NCBI GenBank assembly: GCA_963791345.1
Contig: CAWBRS010000010.1
Coordinates: 38,656 to 102,655 of the forward strand
Direction of reading: 5' to 3'
DNA length: 64,000 nucleotides
Source of the DNA: an uncultured Thermoleophilia bacterium
GTDB lineage: Bacteria > Actinomycetota > Thermoleophilia > UBA2241
Part shown: one piece after another, positions 13,081 through 33,741 of the stretch
Layout: each line of letters starts with the position of its first letter
Position numbering within the stretch: the stretch's first letter is position 1
Translations under genes and position numbers: made by a program
The notes under the pieces: model-generated
What the model was told of the DNA's origin: nothing
The model's database searches: none
The model's input: only the letters and a program-made list of their open reading frames with translations

Positions 13081-13125
13081 TTGACACACCGGCGCCCGGG
13101 CCTATGATGTGTGCGACTTTGTGCG
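13081..13125 (+). promoter_or_regulatory. Sigma-70-like promoter (TTGACA-16-TATGAT) followed by a direct-repeat operator TGTGCG-N4-TGTGCG, for deoR copy 1
   Basis: TTGACA 13081-86 and TATGAT 13103-08. TGTGCG sits at 13110-15 and 13120-25 (10-bp phasing). The same arrangement occurs almost base-for-base at 28320-28364. Confidence 0.6.
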
Positions 13126-13157
13126 CTTTGCCGATTCCGGATGGAGGCCAGCCGGTC

Positions 13158-13952
13158 GTGCCCCCGCAGGACGTGCCCGAGCTCCACGAGATGATCCCGG
13201 CGCAGCGGCGCGCCCGCATCTCGGAGCTGCTGCAGGAGCGGCGGGCCGTCCGCGTCTCCTCCCTCAGCCAGGACCTCGGCGTCTCCGAGATGACGATCCG
13301 CCGCGATCTCGAGCGCCTCGAGGGCGAGGGTGTGCTCATGCGCACGCACGGTGGGGCCGCGCTCAGGCGGCACATGGTCGAAGAACCCTTCTACCTCGAC
13401 CGTGTGTCGGCCAACGCCGAGCAGAAGCGCCGCATCGCGGAGAGTGCCGCCGCGCTGATCCAGCCCGGTGAGAGCGTGTTCCTGAGCTCGGGCACGACGG
13501 CGGCGCAGGTGCTCCGCCACGTCGACCCCACCCTCGAGGCGCGCGTCATCACCCACAACGTCGGCGCCCTCGCCGAGGCTCAGGGGCTGCGGCTCGAGCT
13601 CATCTGCGTGGGCGGCCGCTATCGGCCGCGCGCGAACGCCGTCGACGGCCCCCTGGGCGTCGCCGAGATCGGCCGCTTCCACGCCAGCCGCATGTTGCTG
13701 GGGGTCGACGGACTCGACCTCGAGGAGGGTCTGACCACCCCGACCGTCGGCATGGCCGCCATGGAGCGCGCGATGATCGCCCAGACCCGGGGTGAGGTCG
13801 TCGTGCTCGCCGATCGCAGTAAGATCGGGGTGGTGGCCGATGTCGTCATCTGCGGGTTCGACCAGGTCGACGCCGTCATGCTCGACGACGGTGTCGACGA
13901 AGCCGTGCGCGACGAGCTGACGTCGATGGGCGTCCGCTGCATCGTGGTGTGA
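13158..13952 (+). CDS. DeoR family transcriptional regulator (copy 1)
   Basis: The GTG start lies 10 nt after GGAGG, and both are conserved in copy 2. HTH is ERRAVRVSSLSQDLGVSEMTIRRDLERLEGEGVLMRTHGGA, with a DeoR C-terminal sugar-phosphate sensor domain. The track ATG 13104 lies inside the -10 box and is unlikely to be used. Confidence 0.85.
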   Translation: MPPQDVPELHEMIPAQRRARISELLQERRAVRVSSLSQDLGVSEMTIRRDLERLEGEGVLMRTHGGAALRRHMVEEPFYLDRVSANAEQKRRIAESAAALIQPGESVFLSSGTTAAQVLRHVDPTLEARVITHNVGALAEAQGLRLELICVGGRYRPRANAVDGPLGVAEIGRFHASRMLLGVDGLDLEEGLTTPTVGMAAMERAMIAQTRGEVVVLADRSKIGVVADVVICGFDQVDAVMLDDGVDEAVRDELTSMGVRCIVV

Positions 13953-13998: not shown

Positions 13999-15207
13999 TT
14001 GGACGTGAGCGAGGCCAACCGGCTCTTCGAAGTCGCCGAGCGTCTGGCGGCGGACGCCGGCGCCCTCCGGCGGGCGCTGGAGATCGAGTTCCTCAGCTCC
14101 CAGCTTGCCGAGGTGGTGGCGAGCGACTACGACCTCGGCGAGATCGACCGCGTCGAGCAGATCCTCGGCGGGTTCGAGAACCTGAGCTTCGCCGTCTGCA
14201 CGCGCGCCGACGCCGGCGAGCGGCGCCATTTCGTGCGCAAGTACAAGTACGGGACCGTCGAGCGCGAGATCCGCTACGAGCACGCGCTCGTGCGCCACAT
14301 CAGGGGCAAGGGCTTCGATCTCGCGGCGGAGGTGCTGGAGACGCGGCACGGCGACACCGTCGTGACCCGCGAGGAGCTGCGCGACGGGGAGCGGGTCACG
14401 CGCTACTTCGCCGTGTACGAGATGCTCGGCGGCGAGGACACGTACAGCTGGGTCAAGAACCGCCTGAGCGACGCCGAGTTCGAAGAGGGCGCCCGCGTCC
14501 TCGCCCGGTTCCACTACGCGGCGCACGATTTCGACCCCGGCGAGCTCGTGCGCGAGCAGCCGCCCATCATGGAGTTCCTCGCGACGCTCCCCGACACGTT
14601 CCGCGGGCTGGCCGCACGGTCGACCGGCACGAAGTACGACGCGTTCTTCGTCGCCAGGCTGCCCCGCATCCTGGAGGCGATCGAGCGCGGTCTTGCCCTC
14701 GCACCCGAGCTCGAGGGGCTACCGCGCTGCCCGGTCTTCTGCGATTACCACCCCGGCAACCTCAAGTGGCGCGACGAGAAGGCGGTGGGCCTCTTCGACT
14801 TCGACTGGGCCAAGCTCGACTACCGCCTCTTCGACGTCGCCGTCGGTCTCGTGTACTTCTGCAGCTCCTGGGAGGGCCGCGACGACGGCGAGATGCGACT
14901 CGACAAGATGCGGCTCTTCATCGACGCCTATCAGGACGAGGCGGCGCGCCTCGGCACCCCCGGACCGATGGGGGCCGGCGAGCTGGCGGCGCTGCCGCGC
15001 ATGGTGGCGATCGCCGCTCTCTACGTCGTGAACTGGGACATCGTTGCCTACTACAAGGAGCGACGGCCGAACGACGACGAGTACCTGTTCTTCCTCGAGC
15101 ACAACGTGGCCTTCGTGGAGTACATCGAGGACCACCTCGACGAGGTCGCCGCCATTGCCGCAGCCGCCACCCGTGCCCCTCGAGGTCGCGGGGGAGAGGG
15201 AGCGTGA
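13999..15207 (+). CDS. Phosphotransferase of the APH/homoserine-kinase-II-like kinase family
   Basis: 402 aa with a TTG start after GGGGGGAGGA (alternative GTG 14005). The catalytic loop/DFD region is FCDYHPGNLKW...GLFDFDWAKLDYRLFDVA. Confidence 0.7.
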   Translation: MDVSEANRLFEVAERLAADAGALRRALEIEFLSSQLAEVVASDYDLGEIDRVEQILGGFENLSFAVCTRADAGERRHFVRKYKYGTVEREIRYEHALVRHIRGKGFDLAAEVLETRHGDTVVTREELRDGERVTRYFAVYEMLGGEDTYSWVKNRLSDAEFEEGARVLARFHYAAHDFDPGELVREQPPIMEFLATLPDTFRGLAARSTGTKYDAFFVARLPRILEAIERGLALAPELEGLPRCPVFCDYHPGNLKWRDEKAVGLFDFDWAKLDYRLFDVAVGLVYFCSSWEGRDDGEMRLDKMRLFIDAYQDEAARLGTPGPMGAGELAALPRMVAIAALYVVNWDIVAYYKERRPNDDEYLFFLEHNVAFVEYIEDHLDEVAAIAAAATRAPRGRGGEGA

Positions 15208-15211: not shown

Positions 15212-16666
15212 ATGAAGTTCGTGGAGCTGCTCACCGACGCCCAAGTGACGCGCACGCACGAGGCCTCGCTCGAGGTGCTCGAGCGCGCCGGCATCCTCGT
15301 CCACAACGAGGCGGCGCGCGAGGTCCTCCGCGGGCACGGCTGCCGGGTCGACGGTCAGACCGGGCTCGTGCGCCTGCCCGCCGACGTGGTGGAGCGCGAG
15401 CGCGCCAAGGCGCCGGCGAGCTTCACCTTCCGCGGCCGCGACCCGCGCTTCGACCGCACGATCCCCGACGACGGCCCCATCGTCGTGACCGGCTCCTCGG
15501 CGCCCAACATCGTCGACCCGGCCACCGCGGTCGAGCGCCGCGCCACCTCGGGCGACATCGCCGCGATCGCCTACCTGGTCAACGAGCTGCCCGGCTTCGA
15601 CGTGTTCAGCATCTCGACGCTGGCCGACGACGCGCCTGCCGGTCAGCTCAGCCTGAGCCGCTTCTACCCGGCGCTCAAGAACTGCCTCAAACCGGTGCGC
15701 AGCAACACGCCGACCATGGACGACCTGTACCAGGTCGTCGAGCTCGGCGAGCTCATCGCCGGCGGCCCCGAGGCCTACCGGGAGCGGCCGCTCATCAACC
15801 ACCACTACTGCCCGATGGTGAGCCCGCTCACGATGGACGTCGAGTCCACCGAGGCGGTCATGTGGCTCACCGAGAAGGGCCTGCCCGTCTACACCACCGT
15901 CGTGCCGAACGCCGGCCTCACCGCGCCCATGACGCTGCTCGGCTGCCTCGTCGTCGGCAACGCGGAGTTTCTCGCTGTCACCGCCTTCCAGCAGATGGTC
16001 CGCGAGGGCACGCCGGTGATCTACGCGAGCCTGCCCACGGTCGCCGACATGCGCACCGGCGCCTACGCCCCGGGGGCGATCGAGACGGGCACACTGATCG
16101 CCGCGCAGGCGCAGCTCGCGCGGTTCTACAACGTGCCCTCGGGCGGCTACGTCGGCCTCACCAACGCGCACGCCAACGACGCCCAGTCGGGCTTCGAGAC
16201 CGGCATGAACACGGTGCTCGCCGTCTCGGCCGGGGCCACGCTGCTCAACATGGGCGGCCTCCTGAGCTCGCTCATGGCCTTCGACTTCGCCAAGTGCGTG
16301 ATCGACAACGAGATCGCCCTCATGGACAAGCGGGTGTGGCGTGGGCTCGAGTTCAGCGAGGAGAACCTCGCCGTCGACGAGATCATCGGGGCCGGACCGG
16401 GCGGCAGCTACATGAGCCGCAAGCACACCTCGGCGCGCATGAAGACGACGGCCGTGCTGCCGCGGCTCGCGGCCCGCGACATGCGCGCCCAGTGGGAGCA
16501 GGCGGGGCGCCCCGACATCCACGGGCGGGCCGCGGCCGAGGCGCGGCGCATCCTCTCACGGCCGAACCCCGTCGTCTGGGGCGAGGAGCTCGACCGCCGC
16601 ATCCGCGACCGCTTCCCCGGGCTCGTGGCCGGCGACGTCGTGGTGCCGGAGGCGGCGGGCGTGTAG
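15212..16666 (+). CDS. MttB-superfamily (trimethylamine methyltransferase family, COG5598) methyltransferase, non-pyrrolysine member
   Basis: ATG 15212, 484 aa. It has the typical family opening LTDAQVTRTHEASLEVLERAGILVHNEAAREVLRGHGCRVD..VRLPADVVERERAKAPASFTFRGRDP. The ORF is uninterrupted with no internal TAG. Ends in TAG. Confidence 0.8.
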   Translation: MKFVELLTDAQVTRTHEASLEVLERAGILVHNEAAREVLRGHGCRVDGQTGLVRLPADVVERERAKAPASFTFRGRDPRFDRTIPDDGPIVVTGSSAPNIVDPATAVERRATSGDIAAIAYLVNELPGFDVFSISTLADDAPAGQLSLSRFYPALKNCLKPVRSNTPTMDDLYQVVELGELIAGGPEAYRERPLINHHYCPMVSPLTMDVESTEAVMWLTEKGLPVYTTVVPNAGLTAPMTLLGCLVVGNAEFLAVTAFQQMVREGTPVIYASLPTVADMRTGAYAPGAIETGTLIAAQAQLARFYNVPSGGYVGLTNAHANDAQSGFETGMNTVLAVSAGATLLNMGGLLSSLMAFDFAKCVIDNEIALMDKRVWRGLEFSEENLAVDEIIGAGPGGSYMSRKHTSARMKTTAVLPRLAARDMRAQWEQAGRPDIHGRAAAEARRILSRPNPVVWGEELDRRIRDRFPGLVAGDVVVPEAAGV

Positions 16667-17449: not shown

Positions 17450-18832
17450 ATGATCGACCTTATCGAGGTCTTCGAGCGCGCCGAGAGCGGCCCGCTCACC
17501 TCCGAGACCGACTACTACATGAAGCGTTACGTCCCCAAGCTCAGCGAGGTGATCGCGCGCCACAAGGTCAAGTGGGACAAAGCGACCATCATCAACACCG
17601 ACGACGCGCTCACCGACGCGGTCTTCGAGGCGGCCGTCGACCTGATCGCCGAGGCCGGCGCGTACTGCCCCGAGACCAACCGCGTCATGCAGTTCACCCG
17701 GGACGAGATCGTCACCGCCTGCGCGCAGTGCCCGAAGGCGGCCACGTTCGGCGAGGGCCGTGAGCGCAAGACGATGTACGGTCGCCGCCCCGACACCACG
17801 GACGACCGCCCGTGGGTGCACGTCGGCGGCGGCATCTACACGACCGACGAGCAGGTCTACGTGGACACCGTCGAGAAGATGGCGTCCTTCGACATCGTCG
17901 ACTCGGTGAGCGTGCCCTCGATCCTGCACCTGCGTGGCAAGGACGCGCGCGTACGTTCGCCGCAGGAGATCCTCGTGGCCTGCAAGACGGTGCGCCTGGC
18001 GCGCGAGGGCATCCGCCGCTCGGGGCGCGCCGGCCTGCCGATCATCAACGGCATCTCGGCCGCCTCACAGCCGGCCTCGATGTTCGCCGCGAGCTACCCC
18101 GATTTCGGTCTGCGTCCGAGCGACGGCTTCCTCATCGACTTCCTCAGCGAGATGGTCGTCGGCTACGAGGCCCTGCAGAAGGTCGCCTTCTACAACAGCA
18201 TCAGCGCCAACATCGGCTCGACCTCGACGCCGCTCTTCGGCGGCTACGCCGGCGGCGCCGAGGGCATCGCCGTGCAGGCGACCGCCTACATGATCATGGG
18301 CACGCTGATCTTCCGCGGCAGCTACCACTACAACGCCCCGCTGCACAGCAAGCTGCACCTGAGCTCGACCAGGCCCCTCATCTGGGCGATCGCCATGTCC
18401 AACGCCGCCGTCGGCCGCAACATGGGCTACCCGATGGTCAACCTTCCCTACCTCGGCGGCGGCTCGGGCACGAAGCAGTACCACTACGAAATGGCGTGCT
18501 ATATGCTCGCCGTTGTGACATCGGGTGGAAACGTCTTCTCGGGGCATCCGGCCATGGCCGTCCAGGCGGACTCGCTCGTGCCCGACGACCACAAGTTCCA
18601 CGCCGAGATCGGCCTCGCCGCCGCGAAGCTCACGCGCGCCCAGGCCGAGCCGCTCGCGCAGAAGCTCTTCCCGCTGTTCGGCGACAAGCTCAAGGACCCG
18701 GACAAGGGCCTCACGTTCCAGGAGGTCTACGACATGAAGACCAAGCGGATCGCCAGCGCCGACTACCAGACGGCGATGGACGAGGTCCGCAGCGAGCTGG
18801 CCGACATGGGTCTCGAGGTGCCGGTCTCGTGA
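17450..18832 (+). CDS. MtmB-superfamily (monomethylamine methyltransferase family) protein, non-pyrrolysine member
   Basis: 460 aa, similar in length to archaeal MtmB (~458 aa) and collinear with it as I recall the sequence. Examples are PLFGGYAGGAEGIAVQATAYMIMG versus PIFGGYAGGIEETTIVDVATHINA, and the C-terminus GLTFQEVYDMKT..DEVRSELADMGLEV versus GKTFQECYDVKT..GARKKLEDLGLVF. The region equivalent to the Pyl site reads RAGLPIINGISAASQ with no TAG. Confidence 0.8.
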   Translation: MIDLIEVFERAESGPLTSETDYYMKRYVPKLSEVIARHKVKWDKATIINTDDALTDAVFEAAVDLIAEAGAYCPETNRVMQFTRDEIVTACAQCPKAATFGEGRERKTMYGRRPDTTDDRPWVHVGGGIYTTDEQVYVDTVEKMASFDIVDSVSVPSILHLRGKDARVRSPQEILVACKTVRLAREGIRRSGRAGLPIINGISAASQPASMFAASYPDFGLRPSDGFLIDFLSEMVVGYEALQKVAFYNSISANIGSTSTPLFGGYAGGAEGIAVQATAYMIMGTLIFRGSYHYNAPLHSKLHLSSTRPLIWAIAMSNAAVGRNMGYPMVNLPYLGGGSGTKQYHYEMACYMLAVVTSGGNVFSGHPAMAVQADSLVPDDHKFHAEIGLAAAKLTRAQAEPLAQKLFPLFGDKLKDPDKGLTFQEVYDMKTKRIASADYQTAMDEVRSELADMGLEVPVS

Positions 18833-19740
18833 CGGGACTCACTCCCGAGGCGGCGATCGCCCGCATCGACGACTGGCGCGGCAAGGCCGTCGACTGGCAG
18901 GAGATCGGCGGCGGCATCACCAACCACAACTACCTGATCACCGTCGACGAGGGCCGGGGCGGCAAGTACGTGCTGCGCATACCCGGCGCCGGCACCGACA
19001 CGTTCATCGACCGCGGCCGCGAGCTCGGCAATCACGAGTCGACGGCCGCGGCCGGCGTCTCGCCGCCGCTGCTGCACGTGCTCGAGCCCGAGAAGTGCAC
19101 GGTCGTGCCGTTCATCCAGGGTGAGACGATGCACCCCGAGACGCTCGCCGGCCACCCTGACCGGCTCGAGAAGGTGGTCGACGTCATCAGGACCTACCAC
19201 GACAGGGCCACCTTCTCCAACGACACGAGCGTCTTCCCGATGATCCGCCGGTACTTGCAGATGGCCGCCGAGGTGAAGGCGTGGTTTCCGCCCGACTGGC
19301 CGCGCCTCATGGCCGTCGGCGCCGAGATCGAGGCAGCGATGGGGCGCGCCGCGCCGCGCCCCGTCGCCTGCCACAACGACCTGCTCTCCGAGAACTTCAT
19401 CCTCGACGGCGACGGCCGGATGTGGCTCATCGACTGGGAGTACGGCGGCGTGAACGACCCGTACTTCGACCTCGGTGACTTCTGCGTCGAGCACCCGCTC
19501 TCGCGCGACGAGGAGCGCCTCATCATCACCAGATACTGCGGCGAGATGCAGGAGCACCGTTTCCACCGCATGCTCCTGCACAAGATCGTCGCCGACCTGT
19601 GGTGGAGCATCTGGGCGTTCATCCAGGAGCGGGTGTCACGGCTCGACTTCGACTACCGCGCGTACGGCACCGCGCGCCTCGACCGTCTGCGCGGCAACGC
19701 CGCCGACCCGGAGTACCCCACGTGGCTCGCCACGGTGTAG
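18829..19740 (+). CDS. Choline/ethanolamine kinase family protein (copy 1)
   Basis: GTG 18829 overlaps the mtmB-like stop (GTGA). It has the Brenner motif ACHNDLLSENFI and a complete choline-kinase signature LIDWEYGGVNDPYFDLGDFCVE. Ends in TAG. Confidence 0.85.
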   Translation: MTGLTPEAAIARIDDWRGKAVDWQEIGGGITNHNYLITVDEGRGGKYVLRIPGAGTDTFIDRGRELGNHESTAAAGVSPPLLHVLEPEKCTVVPFIQGETMHPETLAGHPDRLEKVVDVIRTYHDRATFSNDTSVFPMIRRYLQMAAEVKAWFPPDWPRLMAVGAEIEAAMGRAAPRPVACHNDLLSENFILDGDGRMWLIDWEYGGVNDPYFDLGDFCVEHPLSRDEERLIITRYCGEMQEHRFHRMLLHKIVADLWWSIWAFIQERVSRLDFDYRAYGTARLDRLRGNAADPEYPTWLATV

Positions 19741-19816
19741 GCGGGCGCCCGCACGGGCGCCCCGGAAGGTGCGCCGGCCGTTCTTGGGCGGCCGCGACAC
19801 GGATCGGGAGAAGCAC

Positions 19817-20629
19817 ATGAGCGACGAGGCCACTCACCCAGCCGGCCAGGTCGGCGACGAGGTCGGCGTCGGCACCCCCGACCCCGACCTCGCCAAGGTC
19901 TTCGAGGACGAGGCGTTGCGCGTGGTCGAGGCCGGCGACGCCCAGGGCGTCACCCTGCGCGTCATCGGCGCCCTGGCCTTCCACCACCACTGCCCGGAGT
20001 TCGCCTTCATGCAGGCGAAGTTCAACCGCGTCTACACCGACATCGACTTCGCCGGCTACGGCAAGCAGGACCGCGCGATCCGCGCGCTGTTCGTGTCCCT
20101 CGGCTACGACGAGGATCTGGAGATCAACGCCTTCCACGCCGAGGGCGGCCGCCTCATCTTCAACCACCCCGGCAAGCAGATCCACGTCGACGTGTTCATG
20201 GACCGCCTCTACTTCTGCCACGAGATCCCCTGGAAGGGGAGGCTCGAGGTCGACTCGCCCACCATCCCGCTGGCCGAGCTGCTGCTCGAGAAGATGCAGA
20301 TCGTGAAGATCAACGAGAAGGACATCATCGACACGATCATGCTCCTGCGCGAGCACGAGATCGGCGCCGACGACGAGGAGCACATCAACTCGGCGCGCGT
20401 GTCCAAGCTGTGCGCCGGGGAGTGGGGCCTCTGGCGCACGACGACCATGAACCTCGACAAAGTGCGGGAGTACCTCCCCCATCTCGACCTGGACGAGGAG
20501 GACAAGAGGGTGGTGTCGCAACGCGTGGCCGAGCTGTTGAGCGCGATGGACGACTACCCCAAGGGCACCAAGTGGAAGCTGCGCGCCAGGGTGGGCGACA
20601 AGAAACGCTGGTACAACGAGATCGACTGA
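19817..20629 (+). CDS. Conserved hypothetical protein, possible Pol-beta-type nucleotidyltransferase fold (copy 1)
   Basis: 270 aa. LRVIGALAFHHH...RVYTDIDFAGY resembles the G-x(n)-DxD nucleotidyltransferase core. It is paralogous to 27464..28279. The function is not recognised. Confidence 0.5.
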   Translation: MSDEATHPAGQVGDEVGVGTPDPDLAKVFEDEALRVVEAGDAQGVTLRVIGALAFHHHCPEFAFMQAKFNRVYTDIDFAGYGKQDRAIRALFVSLGYDEDLEINAFHAEGGRLIFNHPGKQIHVDVFMDRLYFCHEIPWKGRLEVDSPTIPLAELLLEKMQIVKINEKDIIDTIMLLREHEIGADDEEHINSARVSKLCAGEWGLWRTTTMNLDKVREYLPHLDLDEEDKRVVSQRVAELLSAMDDYPKGTKWKLRARVGDKKRWYNEID

Positions 20630-20656
20630 AGGGTCCACCGGAGAGGCGGCAGGTAC

Positions 20657-21658
20657 ATGGCATTCTGGAAGAAGAAGGACGGCGGTGACGGCAAGCGCGT
20701 CCGCTTGTTCTACGCGACCGACATCCACGGCTCCGAACGCACGTACCGCAAGTTCATCAACGCCGCCAAGTTCTACAAGGTCGACCACGTGGTCATGGGC
20801 GGCGACATCATGGGCAAGTTCCTCATCCCGATCGTCGACGAGGGCGGCGGGCGCCACCGCGTCACGCTCCAGGAGGATCTCACCCATGTCGAGGGCGATC
20901 AGGCTCTCGGCGAGCTCAAGGAGCGCATCGAGACGCTCGGCTTCTACCACGTGACCGTGACCGAGGACGAGCTGCGCGAGATGCAGAGCGACCAGAAGAA
21001 CATCGACGAGGCTTTCCGGCGCGAGGCGCACGCCCGGCTCGAGCGGTGGATCGCCTTCGCCGACGAGCGCCTGGACGGAACGGGGGTGAAGTGCTATGTG
21101 ACGGGCGGCAACGACGACCCGCAGGACCTGCTCGATCTGCTCGACGCGGCGCAGAGCGAGCACGTCGTGAACTGCGAGGAGAAGGTCGTCCTCCTCGAGG
21201 ACCAGTACCCCATGGCGAACTGCGGCTACAGCAACCCGACGCCGTGGAAGACGCCGAGGGAGACCGACGAGGAGACCCTGGAGCAGTTGCTCGAGAAGTC
21301 GGTGGAGGGCATCGACGATTTCACCAGCGCCATCTTCAACATGCACGTCCCTCCGTACGATTCCACGCTCGACGACTGCCCCAAGCTGGACTGGTCGACC
21401 GACCCGCCGATGCCGGTCGTCATCGCCGGCGTGCCGCAGAGCGCTCCGGCGGGCAGCACGGCGGTGCGCAAGGTCGTCGAGAAGTACCAGCCGCTCGTGC
21501 AGCTCACGGGGCACATCCACGAGTCCCGCGGTCTCGTCAAGGTCGGACGCACGACGGTGATCAACCCCGGCAGCGAGTACGGAGAGGGCATCCTGCGCGG
21601 CTGCATCTTCACGCTCGAGCCGGGTAAGGTGGTCGGCTACCAGATGACCTCGGGGTGA
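20657..21658 (+). CDS. Calcineurin-like metallophosphoesterase (copy 1)
   Basis: 333 aa with motifs ATDIHGS, GGDIMGK, GGNDD and GHIHES. Confidence 0.85.
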   Translation: MAFWKKKDGGDGKRVRLFYATDIHGSERTYRKFINAAKFYKVDHVVMGGDIMGKFLIPIVDEGGGRHRVTLQEDLTHVEGDQALGELKERIETLGFYHVTVTEDELREMQSDQKNIDEAFRREAHARLERWIAFADERLDGTGVKCYVTGGNDDPQDLLDLLDAAQSEHVVNCEEKVVLLEDQYPMANCGYSNPTPWKTPRETDEETLEQLLEKSVEGIDDFTSAIFNMHVPPYDSTLDDCPKLDWSTDPPMPVVIAGVPQSAPAGSTAVRKVVEKYQPLVQLTGHIHESRGLVKVGRTTVINPGSEYGEGILRGCIFTLEPGKVVGYQMTSG

Positions 21659-21726
21659 CGACGCGGGGGGCCGCGGTCGCCGGGGATCCGGGAGTCGAGA
21701 GAGTCAACCGGAACTGGGGGTAACGC

Positions 21727-23370
21727 ATGGCAACAGTCGCAGCCAAGCCGGAGGTCTTCAGCCGTAAGGCCTCGGGGCTCTCCAGGGTGATGTCGCCCTG
21801 GTCGGCGTACATGTACAACTTCCTGACCATGGGCGTGATCTTCCCGTGGACGTTCGTGTGGGCGCCGGCGGCGTTCCCGGGCGTCTCCGTGTGGCAGGCA
21901 TGCCTCTACGCCATCCTGCTCGAGCTGCCCATCGCCCTCGCCTACGTCTGGATGGCGACCGCGATGCCGCGCTCCGGCGGGGACTACGTCTTCCAGAGCC
22001 GCGTGCTCGGCGGGGCCATCGGCTTCCCGATCGTGATGAGCGGCTTCGTGATCTGGATCGTGCAGTGGGTCGCCCTGGCCGGCTGGCTCCTCGCCACCCT
22101 GGGCGTGGCGCCGCTGTTCATGGGGCTCGGCTACTACTACGAGAGCACCAGCCTCATCGACGCCGCCGTGTGGGCGCAGGGAGCGCAGGGCAAGGTCGTC
22201 ATCAGCATCATCGGCGCGTTCCTCATGGCGCTGCTGCTCGTGACGGGCTTCAAGAACTACGTGCGCCTGCAGTACTTCATGTTCGCGGCCACCGGCATCC
22301 TGGTCGTGATCTTGCTCGTGCAGTTCCTGCGCACCACCCCGGCCGAGTTCGCCGAGGCGATGAACAAGTTCTCCCTGTTCGTCGACGGCCGCGAGGACTA
22401 CTACAGCTTCATCCAGAAGGACGTGGCCGACGCCGGGGTGGACCTGATGCCCAAGTTCGCGCTGGGGGCCACGCTACTCGCCATCCCGATCGTCTGGACG
22501 AGCCTGCAGTGGGCGACCTACAGCGTGCAGCAGGGCGGCGAGATCAAGGGCGCCCGCGTCTTCAAGAACCAGATGTTCATCATCGTCGGCTCCATGATCT
22601 CGGTGGGCGTCGTCCTGGCCCTCATCGCGTGGGCCGAGGAGCGGGCCGTGGGCACCGAGTTCTTCAACGCAGTCTCCCACTCGTACTACTACCTGGTCAG
22701 CTCCTCGGGAGAGGGCATCGGCAGCGTCCTGCCCTTCCCCGGCATGTTCGCCATCGTGATCACGGCGAACCCCATCATCGTCGTCCTGACCGCGGTGAGC
22801 TTCATGCTCGCCTCGTTGCAGATCACCTGCAACTGCTACATCGGCATGACCCGCATCATGGTCGGCATGTCGCTCGACCGCACGCTGCCCGCGTTCCTCT
22901 CCAAGATCAGCCCGCGCTTCCGTTCGCCGGCGATCGCGCACTGGATCTACTTCGCCTTCGGGTGCTTCGCGATCTACGGCTACAACTACTGGGTCGACTG
23001 GTACAGGCTGACGCTCGGCGTCACCTTCGCCTGCGGGTACGTGTTCGTGGTCAGCTGCCTCGCGGCGGCGCTGATGCCCTACAGGGCCAAGGCGCTCTAC
23101 GATGCTTCGCCGGGCGCCAAGTACACGCTGGGCGGCTTCCCGCTGGTCACGATCTTCGGCGTCATCGGGTTCGTCTTCGGCGGCGCGGCGCTCGTCGCGT
23201 TCCTCTGGAACCCGAACTACGGCCTGCGCGGCGAGTCTCCGTACTGGGGCTACATCATGGTCGGCAGCATCTTCATGGTCTGCCTCGTCGGCTACTGGAT
23301 CGGCAGGGCCTACAACAAGAGCCGGGGCATCGACGTCAACTACGCCTTCCTCGAGGTGCCGCCGGAGTGA
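21727..23370 (+). CDS. APC-superfamily amino acid/amine permease (copy 1)
   Basis: 547 aa with about 12 or more TM segments. It carries AMPRSGGDYVFQSRVLGG, typical of APC transporters. Confidence 0.8.
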   Translation: MATVAAKPEVFSRKASGLSRVMSPWSAYMYNFLTMGVIFPWTFVWAPAAFPGVSVWQACLYAILLELPIALAYVWMATAMPRSGGDYVFQSRVLGGAIGFPIVMSGFVIWIVQWVALAGWLLATLGVAPLFMGLGYYYESTSLIDAAVWAQGAQGKVVISIIGAFLMALLLVTGFKNYVRLQYFMFAATGILVVILLVQFLRTTPAEFAEAMNKFSLFVDGREDYYSFIQKDVADAGVDLMPKFALGATLLAIPIVWTSLQWATYSVQQGGEIKGARVFKNQMFIIVGSMISVGVVLALIAWAEERAVGTEFFNAVSHSYYYLVSSSGEGIGSVLPFPGMFAIVITANPIIVVLTAVSFMLASLQITCNCYIGMTRIMVGMSLDRTLPAFLSKISPRFRSPAIAHWIYFAFGCFAIYGYNYWVDWYRLTLGVTFACGYVFVVSCLAAALMPYRAKALYDASPGAKYTLGGFPLVTIFGVIGFVFGGAALVAFLWNPNYGLRGESPYWGYIMVGSIFMVCLVGYWIGRAYNKSRGIDVNYAFLEVPPE

Positions 23371-23501: not shown

Positions 23502-24437
23502 ATGGCAACAGCGGCACACCATCTGTCGCCGGACGAGCTCATCGCCCGCATCGATGACTGGAAGGGCAAGGACATCCGCTGGGAGGAGCTCGGCGGCGGC
23601 ATCACCAACCACAACTACATCGTCTGGGTGAACGGCGGCTGGGACAACCCGGGCGGCGGCAAGTACGTGCTCCGCGTCCCGGGCGCGGGCACCGACATGT
23701 TCATCGACCGCGACGTCGAGCGCGAGTGCATGGTCGAGGCGGCCAGGATCGGCACGGCCCCCCAGGTCGCCCACGTCATCGAGCCCGAGAAGGCCATGGT
23801 CATCGACTTCATCGACGGCGAGGTCATGCACCCCGATACGATGGCCGGGCACCCGGAGCGCATCACGCAGGCTGTCGAGGCGGTCCGCGTGTACCACGAC
23901 AACGCGGTCTTCACCAACAAGATCGAGATCTTCGACATGCTCCGTCGCTACACCAAGGTGGCGAGCGACATCAACGCCCCCATGCCCGAGCGGCTCGCGG
24001 CGCTGCTGGAGCGGATGCCCGAGATCGAGGAGGCGACGGCGCGCAACCCCGTCCCCGACGTCGCCTGCCAGAACGACCTGCTCTCGGAGAACTTCATCGT
24101 CGACGCGAACGGCAAGATGTGGATCATCGACTGGGAGTACGGGGGCATGACCGACCCCTACTTCGACCTCGGTGACCACGTCATGGAGCACCCGTACTCG
24201 CGTGAGGAGGAGCGCCTCGTCATCGAGACCTATCTGGGCCACATGGACGAGCGGCTCTTCGGCCGCATGATGCTCTACAAGATCGTCTCGGCCGTCTGGT
24301 GGGATGTGTGGGCGATGATCCAGCACACGGTGTCCCAGATCGATTTCGACTACATGGAATGGGCCATGGACCGCGTCGGACGCGCCGAGCGCGGCGTGGC
24401 CGACCCCGACTACCTGAAGTGGCTGGCCGAGTGCTGA
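23502..24437 (+). CDS. Choline/ethanolamine kinase family protein (copy 2)
   Basis: 311 aa with ACQNDLLSENFI and IIDWEYGGMTDPYFDLGDHVME. It is collinear with copy 1, with roughly half of positions identical by eye. Confidence 0.85.
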   Translation: MATAAHHLSPDELIARIDDWKGKDIRWEELGGGITNHNYIVWVNGGWDNPGGGKYVLRVPGAGTDMFIDRDVERECMVEAARIGTAPQVAHVIEPEKAMVIDFIDGEVMHPDTMAGHPERITQAVEAVRVYHDNAVFTNKIEIFDMLRRYTKVASDINAPMPERLAALLERMPEIEEATARNPVPDVACQNDLLSENFIVDANGKMWIIDWEYGGMTDPYFDLGDHVMEHPYSREEERLVIETYLGHMDERLFGRMMLYKIVSAVWWDVWAMIQHTVSQIDFDYMEWAMDRVGRAERGVADPDYLKWLAEC

Positions 24438-24524
24438 GCGGGGCGCCGCGATCGCCTGTGAACGCAGCGAAAGGAGCGAGGAAGGGATGAAGCAGCACGA
24501 GATCACGCCGGAAGGAGGTTTGAC

Positions 24525-25472
24525 GTGACCGCACGGGTCTTCTTCGCGACCGACGTCCACGGGTCGGAGGTCTGCTGGCGGAAGTTCATCAACTCCGGAC
24601 CGCACTACGGCGCCAACATCCTGATCCTCGGCGGCGACATGACCGGCAAGGCGGTCGTCCCGATCATCGATCAGGGGGCGGGCAAGTACTGCTACCACAT
24701 GCAGGACGTCCGCCACGACTTCGAGGGCCAGGAGGCGCTGGCCAAGGAGACGCGCACCATCCGCGACCACGGCTACTACGCCGTGACCATGACCGCGGAC
24801 GAGCGTGACGAGTACACCAGGGACCAGGACAAGTTCGACGAGCTCTTCCACTCGCAGATGCGCAGCACCGTCGCCGACTGGGTGGAGTGGGCCGACGCCA
24901 AGCTGGCGGGCTCCGGCCTGCAGTGCATCGTGTGCCCGGGGAACGACGACCGTCACGACATCGACGGTATCCTCGCGCAGGCCGAACACATCCAGGTGGG
25001 CGAGGGCAACGTCCTCGACCTGCCGGACGGGTACCAGCTCGCCTCGAGCGGCTGGACGAACCTCACGCCGTGGGACACCCCACGTGAGGAGGACGAGCCC
25101 GAGCTGAAGAAGCGGCTCCAGGGGATCGTCGCCCAAGCGACGGTGTCGCCGGAGCGCCTCGTCCTCGGACTGCACTGCCCGCCCTACGACACGAACCTCG
25201 ACGTGGCGCCCAAGATCGACTGGGACACGCTGACGATCAAGGGGCAGGACACGGCCCACGTCGGCTCCACGGCCGTCACAGACATCATCAAGGAGGTGCA
25301 ACCTGTCCTGTCGCTGCACGGCCACATCCACGAGAGCCGTGCCGCCGAACGCATCGGGCGCACGCTGGCGATCAACCCCGGCAGCTCGTACGTGGAGGGC
25401 ACGCTGTCCGGCGTCGTGGTCGAGCTGGACGGCAAGAGCAAGATCAAGAACTACCGACTGACCATGGGGTGA
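24525..25472 (+). CDS. Calcineurin-like metallophosphoesterase (copy 2)
   Basis: GTG follows GGAAGGAGG. 315 aa with motifs ATDVHGS, GGDMTGK, PGNDD and GHIHES. It is collinear with 20657..21658. Confidence 0.85.
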   Translation: MTARVFFATDVHGSEVCWRKFINSGPHYGANILILGGDMTGKAVVPIIDQGAGKYCYHMQDVRHDFEGQEALAKETRTIRDHGYYAVTMTADERDEYTRDQDKFDELFHSQMRSTVADWVEWADAKLAGSGLQCIVCPGNDDRHDIDGILAQAEHIQVGEGNVLDLPDGYQLASSGWTNLTPWDTPREEDEPELKKRLQGIVAQATVSPERLVLGLHCPPYDTNLDVAPKIDWDTLTIKGQDTAHVGSTAVTDIIKEVQPVLSLHGHIHESRAAERIGRTLAINPGSSYVEGTLSGVVVELDGKSKIKNYRLTMG

Positions 25473-25545
25473 GCGCGCCGACGCGCGACACCAGGGGGAC
25501 GGCACCATGGTGCCGGCCGTAACCATTCGACAGGAGGGTCAACCT

Positions 25546-27279
25546 ATGGCAACAAACCCCGCACCGGAGCAGACGCTCTTCGTGCGCAAGGCCAGCGGCC
25601 TGGTCAAGGGGTGGTCCGGCGGGGACGGGTTCCGCTACTCGTTCTTCTCCGTGAACCTGTTCCTCGCCATCTGGTCGTTCGCCTACGCGACGTTCTTCCC
25701 CGAAGGCAGCCTGTTCTGGTCCATCGTCATCACCGCGATCTTCATCGTTCTCGAGATCATCGTCTACGCCGCCCTCATCTCGGCGATGCCGCGCGCCGGC
25801 GGCGACTACGTGTGGATGACGCGCATCTTCCACAGCGCGGTCGGCTTCGTGATCGCCGCTGTGGGCTGGTGGTTCATCCTCTGGCTCTGGACCCCGATCT
25901 ACGCCGACATGGGCGTCCAGACCACGATCAAGCCCATCTTCCGCATCCTCGGCCTGCACGGCGCGGCCGACTGGCTGGGGAGCCGCACGGGCATCTTCGT
26001 CGCCTCCCTCGTGGTCATCGCCATCGCCTCCACCCTGGTCGCGGTGGGCATGAAGACCTACGCCAAGTTCCAGAAGTGGGCCATGTGGATCGGCCTCGCC
26101 GGCGTCGTCATCTGCGGCATCCTGCTCCTGGTCACCTCCGGTGACAGCTTCAAGGAGAAGTTCAACGAGGCCTCCGAGAAGTACTACGGCGGCGACGCGG
26201 GCCTGCTCGACCTGACCAAGTACGAGCAGGACGACGCCGGCCTGTTCGTCTACGACGTCGACGGCAACATGGTCGCGGTCGAGGGCGAGACCCACGCCGG
26301 CGCGTTCGAGGCCATCGAGGCGATCGGCGAGGGCACCGGCATGCCGACCTCGACGTTCCAGGGCGGCATCGGCAAGTACACGTGGTTCCTCATCCCGTTC
26401 GCGCTCTTCTGGATGGCGTGGCCGAACTGGGGCGCCACCCTCTACGGCGAGGTGCGCGGCGCCAAGGACTTCCGCAAGAACATCTACCAGATGCTCGGCG
26501 GCCTCTTCGTGCCGACCTTCATCGCCCTGTCCTTCCTCGGGCTCATGACGTGGAAGGTGGGCTACCAGGCCTTCATGGGCACCATGGCGGGCTTCTGGTG
26601 GGGCATCTCGCCGATCGGTGGGGACTACGTGTCGCCCACGGCGATGATCTCCTGGATCGTGCCCAACGCGGCCTTCCAGGTCATCCTCATCGCCGCCATC
26701 TCGCTGCTCCTCTTCGGCTGGTTCGGCACGCTCTTCCTGTCGTCGACGCGCATGATCTTCGCGGCGGCCTTCGACCGGATCCTGCCTGAGCGCGTCGCGA
26801 AGGTGACCTCCAGCGGCGTGCCGGTGATCGCCCTGGTCCTCATGACCATCCCGTCGATCATCATGGCCGCGCTCTACGCCTACACGCCCGTCGACGAGGA
26901 CTACGGCGTCACCATCGTCAAGCTCTTCACCTACGACGCGACGCTCGGCATCGTCATCATGTTCCTGGGGTCGGCGCTCGCCTTCATGGTCATGAAGTGG
27001 CGCGCCAGGGCGATCTGGGACAGCTCGTCGCTGCCCAAGGGAGAGATCGCGGGCATCCCGTGGCTGTCCTTCGTCGCCGCGATCTACTCCGGGTTCATGG
27101 CGTGGGTCATCTACCGGTTCGTCGTCGACGACATGTACGGGGTCAACAACACCGAGTCGGCCATCTTCATGGGCGTCCTGTACGTGCTGGCGATCGTCAT
27201 CTGGGTCGTCGCCTGGGCGGTCCGCAAGAAGCAGGGTATGGCGCTCGAGTCCGTGGCCAAGGAGATCCCGGTCGAGTAA
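25546..27279 (+). CDS. APC-superfamily amino acid/amine permease (copy 2)
   Basis: ATG 25546 follows AGGAGGG. 577 aa with AMPRAGGDYVWMTRIF. It shares the N-terminal FVRKASGL motif with copy 1 (FSRKASGL). Confidence 0.8.
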   Translation: MATNPAPEQTLFVRKASGLVKGWSGGDGFRYSFFSVNLFLAIWSFAYATFFPEGSLFWSIVITAIFIVLEIIVYAALISAMPRAGGDYVWMTRIFHSAVGFVIAAVGWWFILWLWTPIYADMGVQTTIKPIFRILGLHGAADWLGSRTGIFVASLVVIAIASTLVAVGMKTYAKFQKWAMWIGLAGVVICGILLLVTSGDSFKEKFNEASEKYYGGDAGLLDLTKYEQDDAGLFVYDVDGNMVAVEGETHAGAFEAIEAIGEGTGMPTSTFQGGIGKYTWFLIPFALFWMAWPNWGATLYGEVRGAKDFRKNIYQMLGGLFVPTFIALSFLGLMTWKVGYQAFMGTMAGFWWGISPIGGDYVSPTAMISWIVPNAAFQVILIAAISLLLFGWFGTLFLSSTRMIFAAAFDRILPERVAKVTSSGVPVIALVLMTIPSIIMAALYAYTPVDEDYGVTIVKLFTYDATLGIVIMFLGSALAFMVMKWRARAIWDSSSLPKGEIAGIPWLSFVAAIYSGFMAWVIYRFVVDDMYGVNNTESAIFMGVLYVLAIVIWVVAWAVRKKQGMALESVAKEIPVE

Positions 27280-27310
27280 GCGCCCGAGTGCTCGCGCACG
27301 CGCCGGCGGA

Positions 27311-27343
27311 GGCGCCGGCGGCCGCTCTGCGGCCGCCGGCGCC
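27311..27343 (+). terminator. GC-rich hairpin downstream of permease copy 2
   Basis: GGCGCCGGCGGCCGC-tct-GCGGCCGCCGGCGCC is a perfect 15-bp stem. No clear U-tract follows, which is common in high-GC genomes. Confidence 0.5.
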
Positions 27344-27463
27344 CGCCCGGCCCTCCGCGAGTCGAGACACGGCCCGGCCCCCGCGGGGGCCGGGCGCAGC
27401 GAGAGGCGGCTTCAACGCGGCGGGCACGCGGCCGCGAGTCGCTCGAGGAGGCCGTGACGGACC

Positions 27464-28279
27464 ATGGCGCAGACGCCGTTCATCCTGCCGAAGGACATCC
27501 CGATCGCCGAGTACCCCGGCCCCGAGGTCTTTCTGAGCGAGGGCAAGCGACTCGTCGAGGAGGGCGAGAAGCGCGGCATCGTGATGCGGGTCATGGGCCC
27601 CCTCGCGCTCCACTACTACTTCCCGGACCAGATCGATCTGTACGCACGGCTCGAGCGCCTCGGCGAGCGCTACTTCACCGACATCGACTACGCGGCGTAC
27701 GGCAAGGGTCGCGGCAAGATGCGCGACTTCATGAAGGACATGGGCTACGAGTGCGACCAGGAGACCATGGTCATGTCCGGCAAGACGCGGCACATCTACT
27801 ACGCCGGCGCCGTGCCGATGATCGACGTCTTCTTCGACAAGCTCGACTACTGCCACGAGGTGGACTACACGGGCCGGCTCGAGAAGGACCCGTGGTCCGT
27901 GCCGCTCTCCGACATCCTGCTGCAGAAGCTGCAGATCGTCGAGATCAACGACAAGGACCTCAAGGACATCGAGTACCTCTTCGTGACCTCCGAGCTGGGC
28001 AGCGACGACGAGCACAAGATCAACATGGACTACATCGCCCAGCGCTTCGCCGGCGACTGGGGATTCTGGTACACCGCGACGCAGCTCAACCTGCCCAAGG
28101 TGAAGGAGCACTGTGCGCAGGTCCCCGCGCTGACACCCGAGATGTGTGAGCGCATCAAGGCGCAGGCCGACAAGCTGCTGGCGCGGGTCGACGCCGAGCC
28201 CAAGACCAAGGCGTGGAACAAGCGCGCCAAGAAGGGCGCTTCGAAGACCTGGTACAACGAGGGGTTCTCCGACTGGTGA
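27464..28279 (+). CDS. Conserved hypothetical protein, possible nucleotidyltransferase fold (copy 2)
   Basis: 271 aa. MRVMGPLALHYY...RYFTDIDYAAYGK, with shared blocks against 19817..20629 (..LLEKMQIVKINEKDI.. versus ..LLQKLQIVEINDKDL.., and C-terminal K.WYNE). Confidence 0.5.
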   Translation: MAQTPFILPKDIPIAEYPGPEVFLSEGKRLVEEGEKRGIVMRVMGPLALHYYFPDQIDLYARLERLGERYFTDIDYAAYGKGRGKMRDFMKDMGYECDQETMVMSGKTRHIYYAGAVPMIDVFFDKLDYCHEVDYTGRLEKDPWSVPLSDILLQKLQIVEINDKDLKDIEYLFVTSELGSDDEHKINMDYIAQRFAGDWGFWYTATQLNLPKVKEHCAQVPALTPEMCERIKAQADKLLARVDAEPKTKAWNKRAKKGASKTWYNEGFSDW

Positions 28280-28294: not shown

Positions 28295-28364
28295 TGTGCG
28301 GTTCTGTGCGAGGCTGCAGTTGACACAGCCCGCCCCGTCGGTACAATGTGTGCGACTTTGTGCG
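28295..28364 (+). promoter_or_regulatory. Promoter (TTGACA-16-TACAAT) flanked by two pairs of TGTGCG direct repeats, for deoR copy 2
   Basis: TGTGCG occurs at 28295-300 and 28305-310 upstream. TTGACA is at 28320-25 and TACAAT at 28342-47. A downstream pair (TGTGCG-N4-TGTGCG) lies within 28348-28364. Confidence 0.6.
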
Positions 28365-28395
28365 GTTTGACGACGTGAACGGAGGCCCCGCGGTC

Positions 28396-29190
28396 GTGCC
28401 GTCACAAGACGTGCCCGAGCTCCACGAGATGATCCCGGCGCAGCGGCGCACCCGCATCTCGGAGCTCCTGAAGGAGCGCCGCGCCGTGCGCGTCTCCTCC
28501 CTCAGCGAGGACCTCGGCGTCTCCGAGATGACGATCCGCCGCGACCTCGAACGCCTCGAGGGTGAGGGCGTGCTCGTGCGCACGCACGGGGGCGCCGTGC
28601 TCCGGCGGCGGATCGGTGAGGAGCCCCTCTACCGCGACAACGTCGCCGCCAACGCCGAGCAGAAGCGTCGCATCGCCCAGCGTGCGGCGGCCCTCATCGA
28701 GCCCGGCGAGAGCGTGTTCCTCAGCGCCGGCACGACGGCCGCCCAGGTCCTGCGCCACGTCGACCCCGCCCTCGAGGCGCGCGTCGTCACCCACAACGTC
28801 GGCGCCCTCGCCGAGGCCCAGGGTCTGGGCCTCGAGGTGATCCTCGTCGGCGGGCTCTACAGGCCGCGCTCGAACGCCGTCGGCGGCGCCGGGGCGGTCG
28901 AGCAGATCGGCCGCTTCCACGCCAGCCGCATGTTTCTCGGGGTCGACGGACTCGACCTCGAGGAGGGTCTGACCACCCCGACCGTCGGCGTGGCCGCCAT
29001 CGAGCGCGCCATGCTCGACCAGACCCGCGGCGAGGTCGTCGTGCTCGCCGACCGCAGCAAGATCGGCGTCGTCGCCGACGTCGGCATCTGCGGGTTCGAC
29101 CGCGTCGACACCGTCATCGTGGACGACGGTGTCGACGAAGCCGTGCGCGACGAGCTGACGTCGATGGGCGTCCGCTGCATCGTGGTATGA
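28396..29190 (+). CDS. DeoR family transcriptional regulator (copy 2)
   Basis: GTG lies 10 nt after GGAGG. The protein and DNA are near-identical to copy 1, including identical runs of more than 50 nt, e.g. the last ~65 nt of both genes. Confidence 0.85.
   Translation: MPSQDVPELHEMIPAQRRTRISELLKERRAVRVSSLSEDLGVSEMTIRRDLERLEGEGVLVRTHGGAVLRRRIGEEPLYRDNVAANAEQKRRIAQRAAALIEPGESVFLSAGTTAAQVLRHVDPALEARVVTHNVGALAEAQGLGLEVILVGGLYRPRSNAVGGAGAVEQIGRFHASRMFLGVDGLDLEEGLTTPTVGVAAIERAMLDQTRGEVVVLADRSKIGVVADVGICGFDRVDTVIVDDGVDEAVRDELTSMGVRCIVV

Positions 29191-31715: not shown

Positions 31716-33741
<2,026 letters not shown>

Follow-up and report, generated by a model that had tools for sequence, protein, structure and literature searches.

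Which methyl donor would be served by a relative of monomethylamine methyltransferase that carries no pyrrolysine (Pyl) and is followed directly by a choline-kinase-type gene? This question is raised by a gene at positions 17450–18832 of a 64,000-nucleotide stretch of DNA from an uncultured Thermoleophilia bacterium (contig CAWBRS010000010.1; the whole stretch is called the window below), whose product belongs to the MtmB family of corrinoid methyltransferases. The analysis showed that the gene encodes a full-length, Pyl-free member of the MtmB TIM-barrel family, that it is under purifying selection, and that it lies directly 3' of the gene for a B12-binding corrinoid protein. The best explanation would be a corrinoid-dependent N-demethylase for a choline-derived phospho-amino-alcohol, to which we give about an even chance. 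The donor may, with moderate confidence, be taken to be phosphocholine or the phosphate of N,N-dimethyl- or N-methyl-ethanolamine.

The MtmB-family protein and its clade

The open reading frame (ORF) runs from the ATG at 17450 to the TGA at 18830–18832 and encodes 460 amino acids without an internal stop. The G+C content at its third codon positions was 0.94–0.95 (that of the whole window is 70.6%), and a Shine–Dalgarno sequence, GAGGAG, lies 7 nt 5' of the start. An earlier reading of this DNA, made without database searches (the sequence-only reading), had described the ORF as collinear with archaeal MtmB, with a sense codon at the Pyl site, and had proposed a profile search and a structure prediction as checks. 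The Pfam model PF05369 (MtmB) matched residues 2–455 from end to end (model positions 1–450 of 450; E 3.1e-65; 221 bits against a cut-off of 25). MtmB of Methanosarcina barkeri (PDB 1L2Q/1NTH) was aligned with residues 3–455 at an E of 1.3e-39 and about 25% identity, and the two sequence blocks that had been singled out were found in it as well (PLFGGYAGG against PIFGGYAGG in MtmB, and GLTFQEVYD against GKTFQECYD). None of the NCBIfam models matched the protein.

Pyl202 of MtmB (GRPGMGV-X-GPETSLSAQ) stands opposite Ile199 of the window protein (codon ATC; GRAGLPI-I-NGISAASQ) when the two are aligned as a pair and also when 119 members of the family are aligned, so that the sense codon was confirmed. 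An in-frame stop was found in none of 78 sequences of the clade. Since Ile199 replaces Pyl202 and the gene has no in-frame TAG, the activation chemistry that proceeds through a Pyl imine is unavailable to this protein. Across the non-Pyl MtmB superfamily, almost any residue occurs in the Pyl column of the family alignment.

An AlphaFold2 (AF2) model of the protein (pLDDT 74, pTM 0.81) was built on a shallow alignment of 15 sequences, which suffices for the fold and not for reading the active site. When it was searched with Foldseek, the best matches were the MtmB structures 1TV2/1L2Q/1NTH (TM 0.82, E 1e-25), and the next family was MttB at a TM of 0.4. Hence, both of the proposed checks led to MtmB. 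Compared with 46 orthologues, the gene gave dN/dS values of 0.07–0.22. Seven aromatic residues (W122, Y130, Y280, Y292, Y294, Y334, Y351) and five basic ones (K107, H124, R169, H366, H381) are invariant and specific to the clade, a set that would fit a cation–pi cage together with an anion site.

An exact look-up of the window protein in the assembly index gave no entry, and the homologue search returned 173 close homologues. The best 120 of these are 54–93% identical to the window protein, about 459–460 amino acids long and nearly all metagenomic, and the few that are named carry the database name 'monomethylamine:corrinoid methyltransferase'. As these 173 homologues and 80 genome loci hold the same gene, a chance ORF is ruled out. 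When 1.84 billion cluster representatives were scanned exhaustively with HMMER, 762 clusters matched with E values up to 0.001. Among the representatives, those of the protein's own clade were 70% and 56% identical to it, and the next full-length cluster was 39% identical. Inside the clade, identities range over 52–97% across four phyla, and they are at most 39% to every other cluster defined at 50% identity. The full-length non-Pyl clusters that come nearest to Pyl-containing MtmB are only 24–25% identical to the window protein. Judged by these identities, the clade is a discrete one within a non-Pyl MtmB superfamily of great size and diversity.

The set of genome loci consisted of the 80 best loci from species-representative genomes, all of them metagenome-assembled genomes. 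Members of the clade were found in uncultured Thermoleophilia, Desulfobacterota, Chloroflexota and Spirochaetota, which are bacteria of soil and sediment. The loci from Thermoleophilia and other Actinomycetota, to which the window belongs, are mostly 88–97% identical (lowest, 82%), those from Desulfobacterota, Syntrophales and one Pelolinea (Chloroflexota) 64–71%, and those from Spirochaetota 55–57%. There were no Archaea among the 80.

Neighbouring genes and the methyl donor

The proteins of the window and those of three other loci were compared by tblastn with 85 loci. A locus was counted as well-flanked if its sequence extended 3 kb or more to either side of the gene (42 from Actinomycetota and 19 others, 61 in total), and the counts that follow refer to these. 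A corrinoid gene lies directly 5' of the MtmB homologue in 42/42 actinobacterial and 19/19 other loci; in the window it ends 40 nt before the start. The neighbourhood comparison proposed in the sequence-only reading thus gave the corrinoid–MtmB pair in 61 of 61 loci, and kinases near the clade in three phyla. From family and gene order, the clade protein is very likely a substrate-specific corrinoid methyltransferase (MT1) that would move an N-methyl group from a small amine to the Co(I) of the corrinoid protein encoded upstream.

It had been noted earlier that the stop of the MtmB homologue overlaps the GTG of a choline/ethanolamine kinase, and this proved correct (GTGA, 18829–18832, with GAGG 10 nt upstream; the kinase scores 103 bits with PF01633). 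The further claim, that the 4-nt overlap implies co-translation and a shared substrate class, is more than this overlap can bear, since the kinase abuts the gene exactly only in its four closest relatives (L004, L005, L006 and L035). In other Thermoleophilia, the kinase alignment begins 45–295 nt downstream, or a phosphoesterase gene is directly next. Coupling was judged by the distance to the kinase alignment and not by the presence of GTGA, a string that is uninformative because it arises, with or without a gene start, wherever the last codon, a conserved TCG for Ser, meets the TGA stop. In the loci compared, the adjacency of MtmB homologue and kinase is therefore conserved, and translational coupling is not.

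The DeoR regulator, the non-Pyl MttB homologue and the corrinoid protein (Table 1) were each present in 42/42 actinobacterial loci, the APH kinase in 38, the choline kinase, the phosphoesterase and the permease in 35 each, and mtbB in 30. A kinase or a transporter with a PhnS2-like binding protein was found within 10 kb in 42/42 actinobacterial and 14/19 other loci. The neighbours recognized earlier, the adjacent corrinoid protein and the kinase, were thus confirmed; the APH kinase and the non-Pyl MttB upstream, and the second module and mtbB downstream, had been missed.

Outside the Actinomycetota, three contexts were seen. In Syntrophales, Desulfobacterales and Pelolinea (context A), there is no kinase, and six loci carry an ABC transporter whose binding protein is best matched by the PhnS2 model (putative 2-aminoethylphosphonate type; 255 bits, E 1e-75, below the cut-off). 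An orthologous MttB, 58–66% identical to that of the window, is often present there, and a dimethylglycine/sarcosine-dehydrogenase-like flavoprotein and electron-transfer flavoprotein (ETF) lie nearby. One context-A locus also has a pterin-binding methyltransferase (MT2), and another (L073) a HisC-like aminotransferase. In Desulfohalobiaceae (context B), the order is S-adenosylmethionine (SAM) synthetase, choline kinase, OpuAC-type ABC transporter, corrinoid protein, MtmB, one gene, choline kinase and SAM-dependent methyltransferase. The enzymes of contexts A and B are 74–79% identical to each other, which makes one substrate class for both likely. In Spirochaetota (context C), two corrinoid–MtmB pairs lie among three kinases, two of the choline type and one APH kinase, which is divergent to the corrinoid–MtmB genes and shares 39% identity with that of the window. 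The second MtmB is a paralogue of 37–40% identity, and carbon monoxide dehydrogenase/acetyl-CoA synthase (CODH/ACS), RACo and pterin-binding methyltransferase genes adjoin. Choline kinases are hence linked to the clade in three phyla (Thermoleophilia, Desulfohalobiaceae and Spirochaetota) in different gene orders.

In the spirochaetal loci L003 (6177–11383), L079, L080 and L083, the choline kinases lie between the two divergent corrinoid–MtmB pairs, near the CODH/ACS cluster. Such a layout would fit the entry of choline-type methyl groups into the Wood–Ljungdahl pathway. A pterin-binding (PF00809) methyltransferase stands beside clade members in L003, L060, L064, L079 and L080.

These neighbourhoods point to a donor of the phosphocholine series in several ways. 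Choline-kinase-family and APH kinases recur in independent arrangements, and in six kinase-less loci an aminoethyl-phosph(on)ate-type transporter substitutes for them. One lineage has an OpuAC-type quaternary-amine transporter, phosphoesterases are found as well, and the named members of the HisC-like aminotransferase family act on phosphorylated amino alcohols. There are also two precedents. Eubacterium limosum demethylates choline only once it has been phosphorylated: the kinase MthK makes phosphocholine, with which MthB, of the MttB family, methylates the corrinoid protein MthC, and tetrahydrofolate then receives the methyl group through MthA (Jiang et al. 2025, PMC12155760). The co-localisation of mthK and mthB was described for Firmicutes and deltaproteobacteria; Actinobacteria were not listed (PMC12155760). 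The other precedent is MtqB of Methanococcoides methylutens Q3c, a non-Pyl MtmB homologue of 459 amino acids encoded 3' of a corrinoid protein (Kashyap et al. 2026, PMC13044021), which methylates cob(I)alamin with tetramethylammonium, with choline and, weakly, with monomethylamine (PMC13044021). The statement of the sequence-only reading that non-Pyl MtmB homologues have no assigned substrate is therefore outdated. Its substrate class, an N-methylated amino alcohol or its phosphate, came out as the best-supported reading, given the choline kinases in different orders in three phyla and the six kinase-less loci with a transporter of the aminoethyl-phosph(on)ate-binding type.

The route that we propose would begin with import of the amino alcohol by the permeases, followed by its phosphorylation by the APH-type and choline-kinase-type kinases. 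The non-Pyl MttB and MtmB homologues would then strip successive methyl groups onto one shared corrinoid protein. A further methyl might be taken by the Pyl-containing MtbB or, in Desulfobacterota, by the dimethylglycine-dehydrogenase-like flavoenzyme. The demethylated phosphate ester would finally lose its phosphate to the metallophosphoesterases or its amino group to the HisC-like aminotransferase. That MttB-type and MtmB-type enzymes take successive methyl groups by way of one corrinoid protein, ending in a primary amine, is suggested by the recurrence of MttB–corrinoid–MtmB trios, in the clade (with MttB 58–66% identical between phyla) and in two paralogous clades beside aminotransferase and aldehyde-oxidising genes. 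The MtmB homologue of context B would act on the quaternary compound, as it is the sole MT1 seen in those loci.

The paralogous non-Pyl MtmB clades (L084, 7796–16903; L085, 8001–14457) likewise form corrinoid–MtmB–MttB trios, and the next genes encode a class-III aminotransferase and an aldehyde-specific oxidoreductase or dehydrogenase. One of them also occurs in Thermoleophilia, at 36% identity to the MtmB homologue of the window. The pairing of a non-Pyl MttB with a non-Pyl MtmB may be a general design.

Several observations weigh against the explanation preferred here. The exact abutment of the kinase (distance 0) is confined to the four loci named above, and in 5 of the 19 non-actinobacterial loci the nearest 10 kb contain no kinase and no PhnS2-like transporter either. 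Residues 201–266 of the AF2 model, directly after the Pyl-equivalent position, have a pLDDT below 50, leaving the pocket illegible in the model. Neither a pterin-binding MT2 (PF00809) nor a RamA/RACo activase was found among the ORFs scanned in the window; the genes for methyl acceptance (MT2) and for reductive activation lie beyond it. In the neighbouring MttB homologue, the Pyl334 position is occupied by Leu, as it is in the glycine betaine enzyme MtgB, and the acid-binding R312 and H348 of MtgB are replaced by Gly and Met. The Gly was invariant in all trio orthologues examined, and R312 is reported to be conserved in MthB and other acid-substrate enzymes, H348 to a lesser extent (PMC13080624). 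By these residues, the MttB of the window looks like a subfamily unlike the characterised acid-substrate enzymes.

Two further objections lead to specific alternatives. MtqB, the one non-Pyl MtmB homologue to have been characterised, acts on tetramethylammonium and on choline that is not phosphorylated. The window protein might thus be its equivalent and demethylate free choline, perhaps also tetramethylammonium, with the kinases acting on the products or on a parallel branch; the OpuAC-type transporter in the Desulfohalobiaceae loci, the loci without a kinase, and the position of MtqB directly 3' of a corrinoid protein of about 216 amino acids would agree with this. We consider it unlikely, as the kinases are tightly linked to the clade in three phyla and replaced elsewhere by the PhnS2-like transporter. 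Orthology with MtqB also seems improbable, given the identities of at most 39% to other clusters and the lack of Archaea in the 80 best loci. Identity to those full-length non-Pyl clusters that are nearest Pyl-MtmB is only 24–25%. The other objection is that the dimethylglycine-dehydrogenase-like gene of the Desulfobacterota and Pelolinea loci fits glycine-betaine-derived substrates equally well. An enzyme for dimethylglycine or sarcosine, made from glycine betaine by the adjacent MttB, with the choline kinases as a separate module, would account for the MttB–corrinoid–MtmB trios that adjoin this flavoprotein and ETF, and for MtgB being the best solved relative of the MttB homologue. Stepwise corrinoid-dependent conversion of glycine betaine to sarcosine has been described at the physiological level, with the enzymes unassigned, in strain DCMF (PMC9768040). 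The missing R312 and H348 speak against a carboxylate, kinases are found with the clade in three phyla, even at loci without an MttB gene, and the transporter in the same Desulfobacterota loci is PhnS2-like and not of the betaine type; the chance of such a substrate is accordingly small.

A marginally larger, yet still low, probability goes to some different methylated compound, for example an N-methylated 2-aminoethylphosphonate or another methylated phospho-amine. The closest model of the PhnS2-like transporter is indeed one for aminoethylphosphonate, and the non-Pyl MtmB superfamily is very diverse, with its 762 clusters and many residues at the Pyl position. Against this, kinases, which a phosphonate would not require, are the most frequent neighbours, and no phosphonate-cleaving gene was seen in the window. 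Finally, a Pyl-independent monomethylamine methyltransferase could consume the monomethylamine left by the Pyl-containing MtbB, with which it shares its array in 30/42 Thermoleophilia loci, and MtqB has the weak activity on monomethylamine mentioned above. This seems very improbable: the clade occurs without mtbB in three other phyla, Pyl is held to be necessary for the activation of monomethylamine (PMC9842639, PMC13044021), and the organism is evidently able to encode Pyl, yet has none in its MtmB homologue. The GlnA-like genes 3' of mtbB offer another route for monomethylamine. The demethylation of a phosphorylated, choline-derived amino alcohol hence remains our preferred reading.

The gene array and probable pyrrolysine decoding

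The genes of the array, all on the + strand, are collected in Table 1. The stop of the APH-family kinase, annotated in the database as 'homoserine kinase type II', lies 4 nt before the start of the MttB homologue, and only Thermoleophilia orthologues were among the 120 matches listed in its homologue search. Equating this kinase and the MttB homologue with MthK and MthB was considered and found unsupported, as the MttB homologue lacks the equivalents of R312 and H348. The nearest NCBIfam model for the corrinoid protein was MtgC, below its cut-off.

Table 1. Positions of the array genes and of the PYLIS element in the window
Feature	Position	Strand	Evidence
DeoR-family regulator, first gene of the array	13104–13952	+	Pfam HTH_DeoR and DeoRC; 42/42 Actinomycetota loci
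APH-family small-molecule kinase	13999–15207	+	PF01636 (APH), E 4e-23; DYHPGN and FDFD motifs; 38/42 Actinomycetota loci
Non-Pyl MttB-superfamily methyltransferase	15212–16666	+	PF06253, E 1e-79; MtgB (9YCE/2QNE), E 1e-61
Corrinoid (B12-binding) protein, 215 amino acids	16762–17409	+	PF02607 and PF02310; DLHSIG, the DxHxxG cobalt-ligand motif
Non-Pyl MtmB-family corrinoid methyltransferase (probable MT1)	17450–18832	+	Ile199 at the Pyl position; PF05369; 1L2Q/1NTH
Choline/ethanolamine-kinase-family kinase 1	18829–19740	+	PF01633 (Choline_kinase), 103 bits against a cut-off of 29; PDB 3DXQ, E 2e-41; Streptococcus pneumoniae LicA (4R77), E 6e-24; Brenner motif HNDLLSEN, and IDWEY motif
Conserved protein 1 of unknown function, 270 amino acids	19817–20629	+	No Pfam or NCBIfam match; paralogue of 27464–28279; kept in relatives
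Metallophosphoesterase 1	20657–21658	+	Weak Metallophos matches; kept beside the kinase in relatives
APC-superfamily permease 1	21727–23370	+	PF13520
Choline/ethanolamine-kinase-family kinase 2	23502–24437	+	PF01633, 88.8 bits
Metallophosphoesterase 2	24525–25472	+	PF14582 and Metallophos
APC-superfamily permease 2	25507–27279	+	PF13520 and PF00324
Conserved protein 2 of unknown function	27464–28279	+	Weak NTP_transf_5 match, E 0.003; paralogue of 19817–20629
Second DeoR regulator	28348–29190	+	
Transaldolase-like gene	29303–30502	+	
HisC-like (histidinol-phosphate-type) aminotransferase	30528–31610	+	
Transketolase, frameshifted in the window	31716–33741	+	
mtbB, dimethylamine methyltransferase family, in-frame TAG at 34857–34859	33783–35210	+	PF09505 on both halves
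PYLIS element, mtbB type	34857–34956	+	Rfam RF02509 (PYLIS_2), 68.2 bits against a gathering threshold of 36, E 2.5e-14
Short-chain dehydrogenase/reductase (SDR), two GlnA-like genes, aldehyde:ferredoxin oxidoreductase	35437–41401	+	Downstream of mtbB

Downstream of the MtmB homologue, a four-gene module is duplicated (18829–23370 and 23502–28279), each copy with a choline-kinase-family kinase, a 270-amino-acid protein, a metallophosphoesterase and an APC permease. The paralogy of the two conserved proteins was recognized by eye from sequence blocks common to both translations. Kinase 2 has Gln in place of His in its Brenner motif; in most Thermoleophilia loci, the kinase found after the MtmB homologue is of this second type. 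Sequence searches of the PDB with the APH kinase, metallophosphoesterase 1 and conserved protein 2 gave nothing useful.

A set of second DeoR, transaldolase, aminotransferase and transketolase genes also follows the kinase in L029 and L036, and the aminotransferase that adjoins the MttB–corrinoid–MtmB trio in L073 is 64% identical to the HisC-like one of the window. More speculatively, the genes at 28348–33741 could provide a route for a C2-phosphate product, from phosphoethanolamine to glycolaldehyde phosphate and on to sugar-phosphate rearrangements. The N- and C-terminal parts of the transketolase are in different frames (at about 32650–32720) and in a single frame in L029 and L036; an APC permease further downstream is also split (42567–43832 and 43685–44197). 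Both apparent frameshifts are either assembly indels or pseudogenes. In L045 and L076, too, mtbB is followed by the SDR and the first GlnA-like gene. The two glutamine-synthetase-like (GlnA-like) genes are candidates for adding a gamma-glutamyl group to a primary amine, for instance methylamine or ethanolamine. Two genes on the - strand appear unrelated to the array: 48360–51551, for a 1063-amino-acid protein with a papain-like peptidase, lectin-like and BNR-type repeats, and 54943–57615, for a signalling protein with GAF-GAF-HD domains.

The mtbB gene is interrupted by its in-frame TAG, and the Pfam model Dimeth_Pyl (PF09505) continues across it, with model positions 5–353 before and 355–463 after, the two halves abutting at the TAG. 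The NCBIfam equivalog model for dimethylamine methyltransferase, TIGR02368, scored 344 bits on the N-terminal part alone. The match to the PYLIS element starts exactly at the TAG; in the Rfam scan of the window there was no cobalamin riboswitch or any other element. A single TAG at the same position was found in 31/31 Thermoleophilia loci that hold both mtbB halves. TAG also ends 8 of 37 likely genes of the window (22%), including the MttB homologue and mtbB. Neither a tRNA-Pyl nor a pyl gene was found in the window or, for 49 related loci, in the surrounding 10 kb, and the pyl genes must be located elsewhere. A radical-SAM gene at 5080–6219 was considered as PylB and rejected, as it matched no PylB model and gave only weak B12/radical-SAM matches. 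On the evidence of mtbB, this Thermoleophilia lineage very probably decodes Pyl, and keeps its MttB and MtmB homologues free of it.

Taken together, the array could be a kinase-primed, three-step, corrinoid-dependent pathway from choline to phosphoethanolamine, with one member from each of three unrelated methylamine methyltransferase families (the non-Pyl MttB, the non-Pyl MtmB and the Pyl-containing MtbB) acting on one corrinoid protein, followed by transamination to glycolaldehyde phosphate by the HisC-like enzyme and assimilation through transaldolase and transketolase. In this full form we regard the proposal as rather doubtful. If it were true, the clade would be the first corrinoid methyltransferase shown to act on the phosphate ester of a tertiary or secondary amine without Pyl, and Thermoleophilia would join the Pyl-decoding bacteria.

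Significance and comparison with known systems

The window protein is a variant, associated with kinases, of a class that is already known, the corrinoid-dependent N-methyl transferases without Pyl. In the searchable literature, we found no paper containing both 'MtmB' and 'choline kinase', no description of an actinobacterial lineage that groups a non-Pyl MttB, a non-Pyl MtmB and a Pyl-MtbB around a single corrinoid protein, and nothing that links Pyl with Thermoleophilia in substance. The clade is widespread in uncultured bacteria and distant from MtqB, the only non-Pyl MtmB homologue with a known substrate. The database name 'monomethylamine:corrinoid methyltransferase' is almost certainly wrong for a protein without Pyl, and it inflates the methylamine use predicted for soil and sediment metagenomes. 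Because the neighbours (kinases, transporters and phosphoesterases) are informative, the list of candidate substrates is short and directly testable. If the donor does belong to the phosphocholine series, the choline head group would be removed without formation of trimethylamine in Actinomycetota, Desulfobacterota and Spirochaetota, and the 2025 discovery in E. limosum would extend to a second enzyme family. The array, in which Pyl and non-Pyl members of three methylamine methyltransferase families share one corrinoid protein, is a natural experiment on the need for Pyl with each amine.

Compared with M. barkeri MtmB, the window protein matches the same Pfam family over its full length, has the TIM-barrel fold and the GRPG and FGGYAGG motif regions, and is paired with a cognate corrinoid protein; it differs in its low overall identity and in having Ile where MtmB has Pyl. 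With MtqB it shares the non-Pyl MtmB family, a length of about 459–460 amino acids, the position directly 3' of a corrinoid protein of about 215 amino acids, and a link to choline-type substrates. MtqB, in contrast, is archaeal, serves methanogenesis via MtbA, acts on unphosphorylated quaternary amines and has no kinase partner. The window protein belongs to a bacterial-only clade at most 39% identical to other clusters, and MtqB was compared by its description only; cluster look-ups with 20 representative proteins gave no Methanococcoides name.

The MthK/MthB/MthC system resembles the locus in placing a kinase step before a corrinoid-dependent MT1, and in having the kinase gene beside the MT1 and corrinoid genes. 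The difference is that MthB is of the MttB family and the protein described here of the MtmB family, that the window has no pterin methyltransferase of the MthA type, and that its MttB homologue lacks the equivalents of R312 and H348, of which R312 is reported to be conserved in MthB and H348 to a lesser extent. MtgB of Desulfitobacterium hafniense (2QNE, 9YCE) is the paradigm of a non-Pyl relative of a Pyl methyltransferase with a charged N-methyl donor, and among solved structures it comes closest to the MttB homologue of the window (Table 1). It belongs to another family than the MtmB homologue, and its carboxylate-binding residues are not kept in the MttB homologue next to it.

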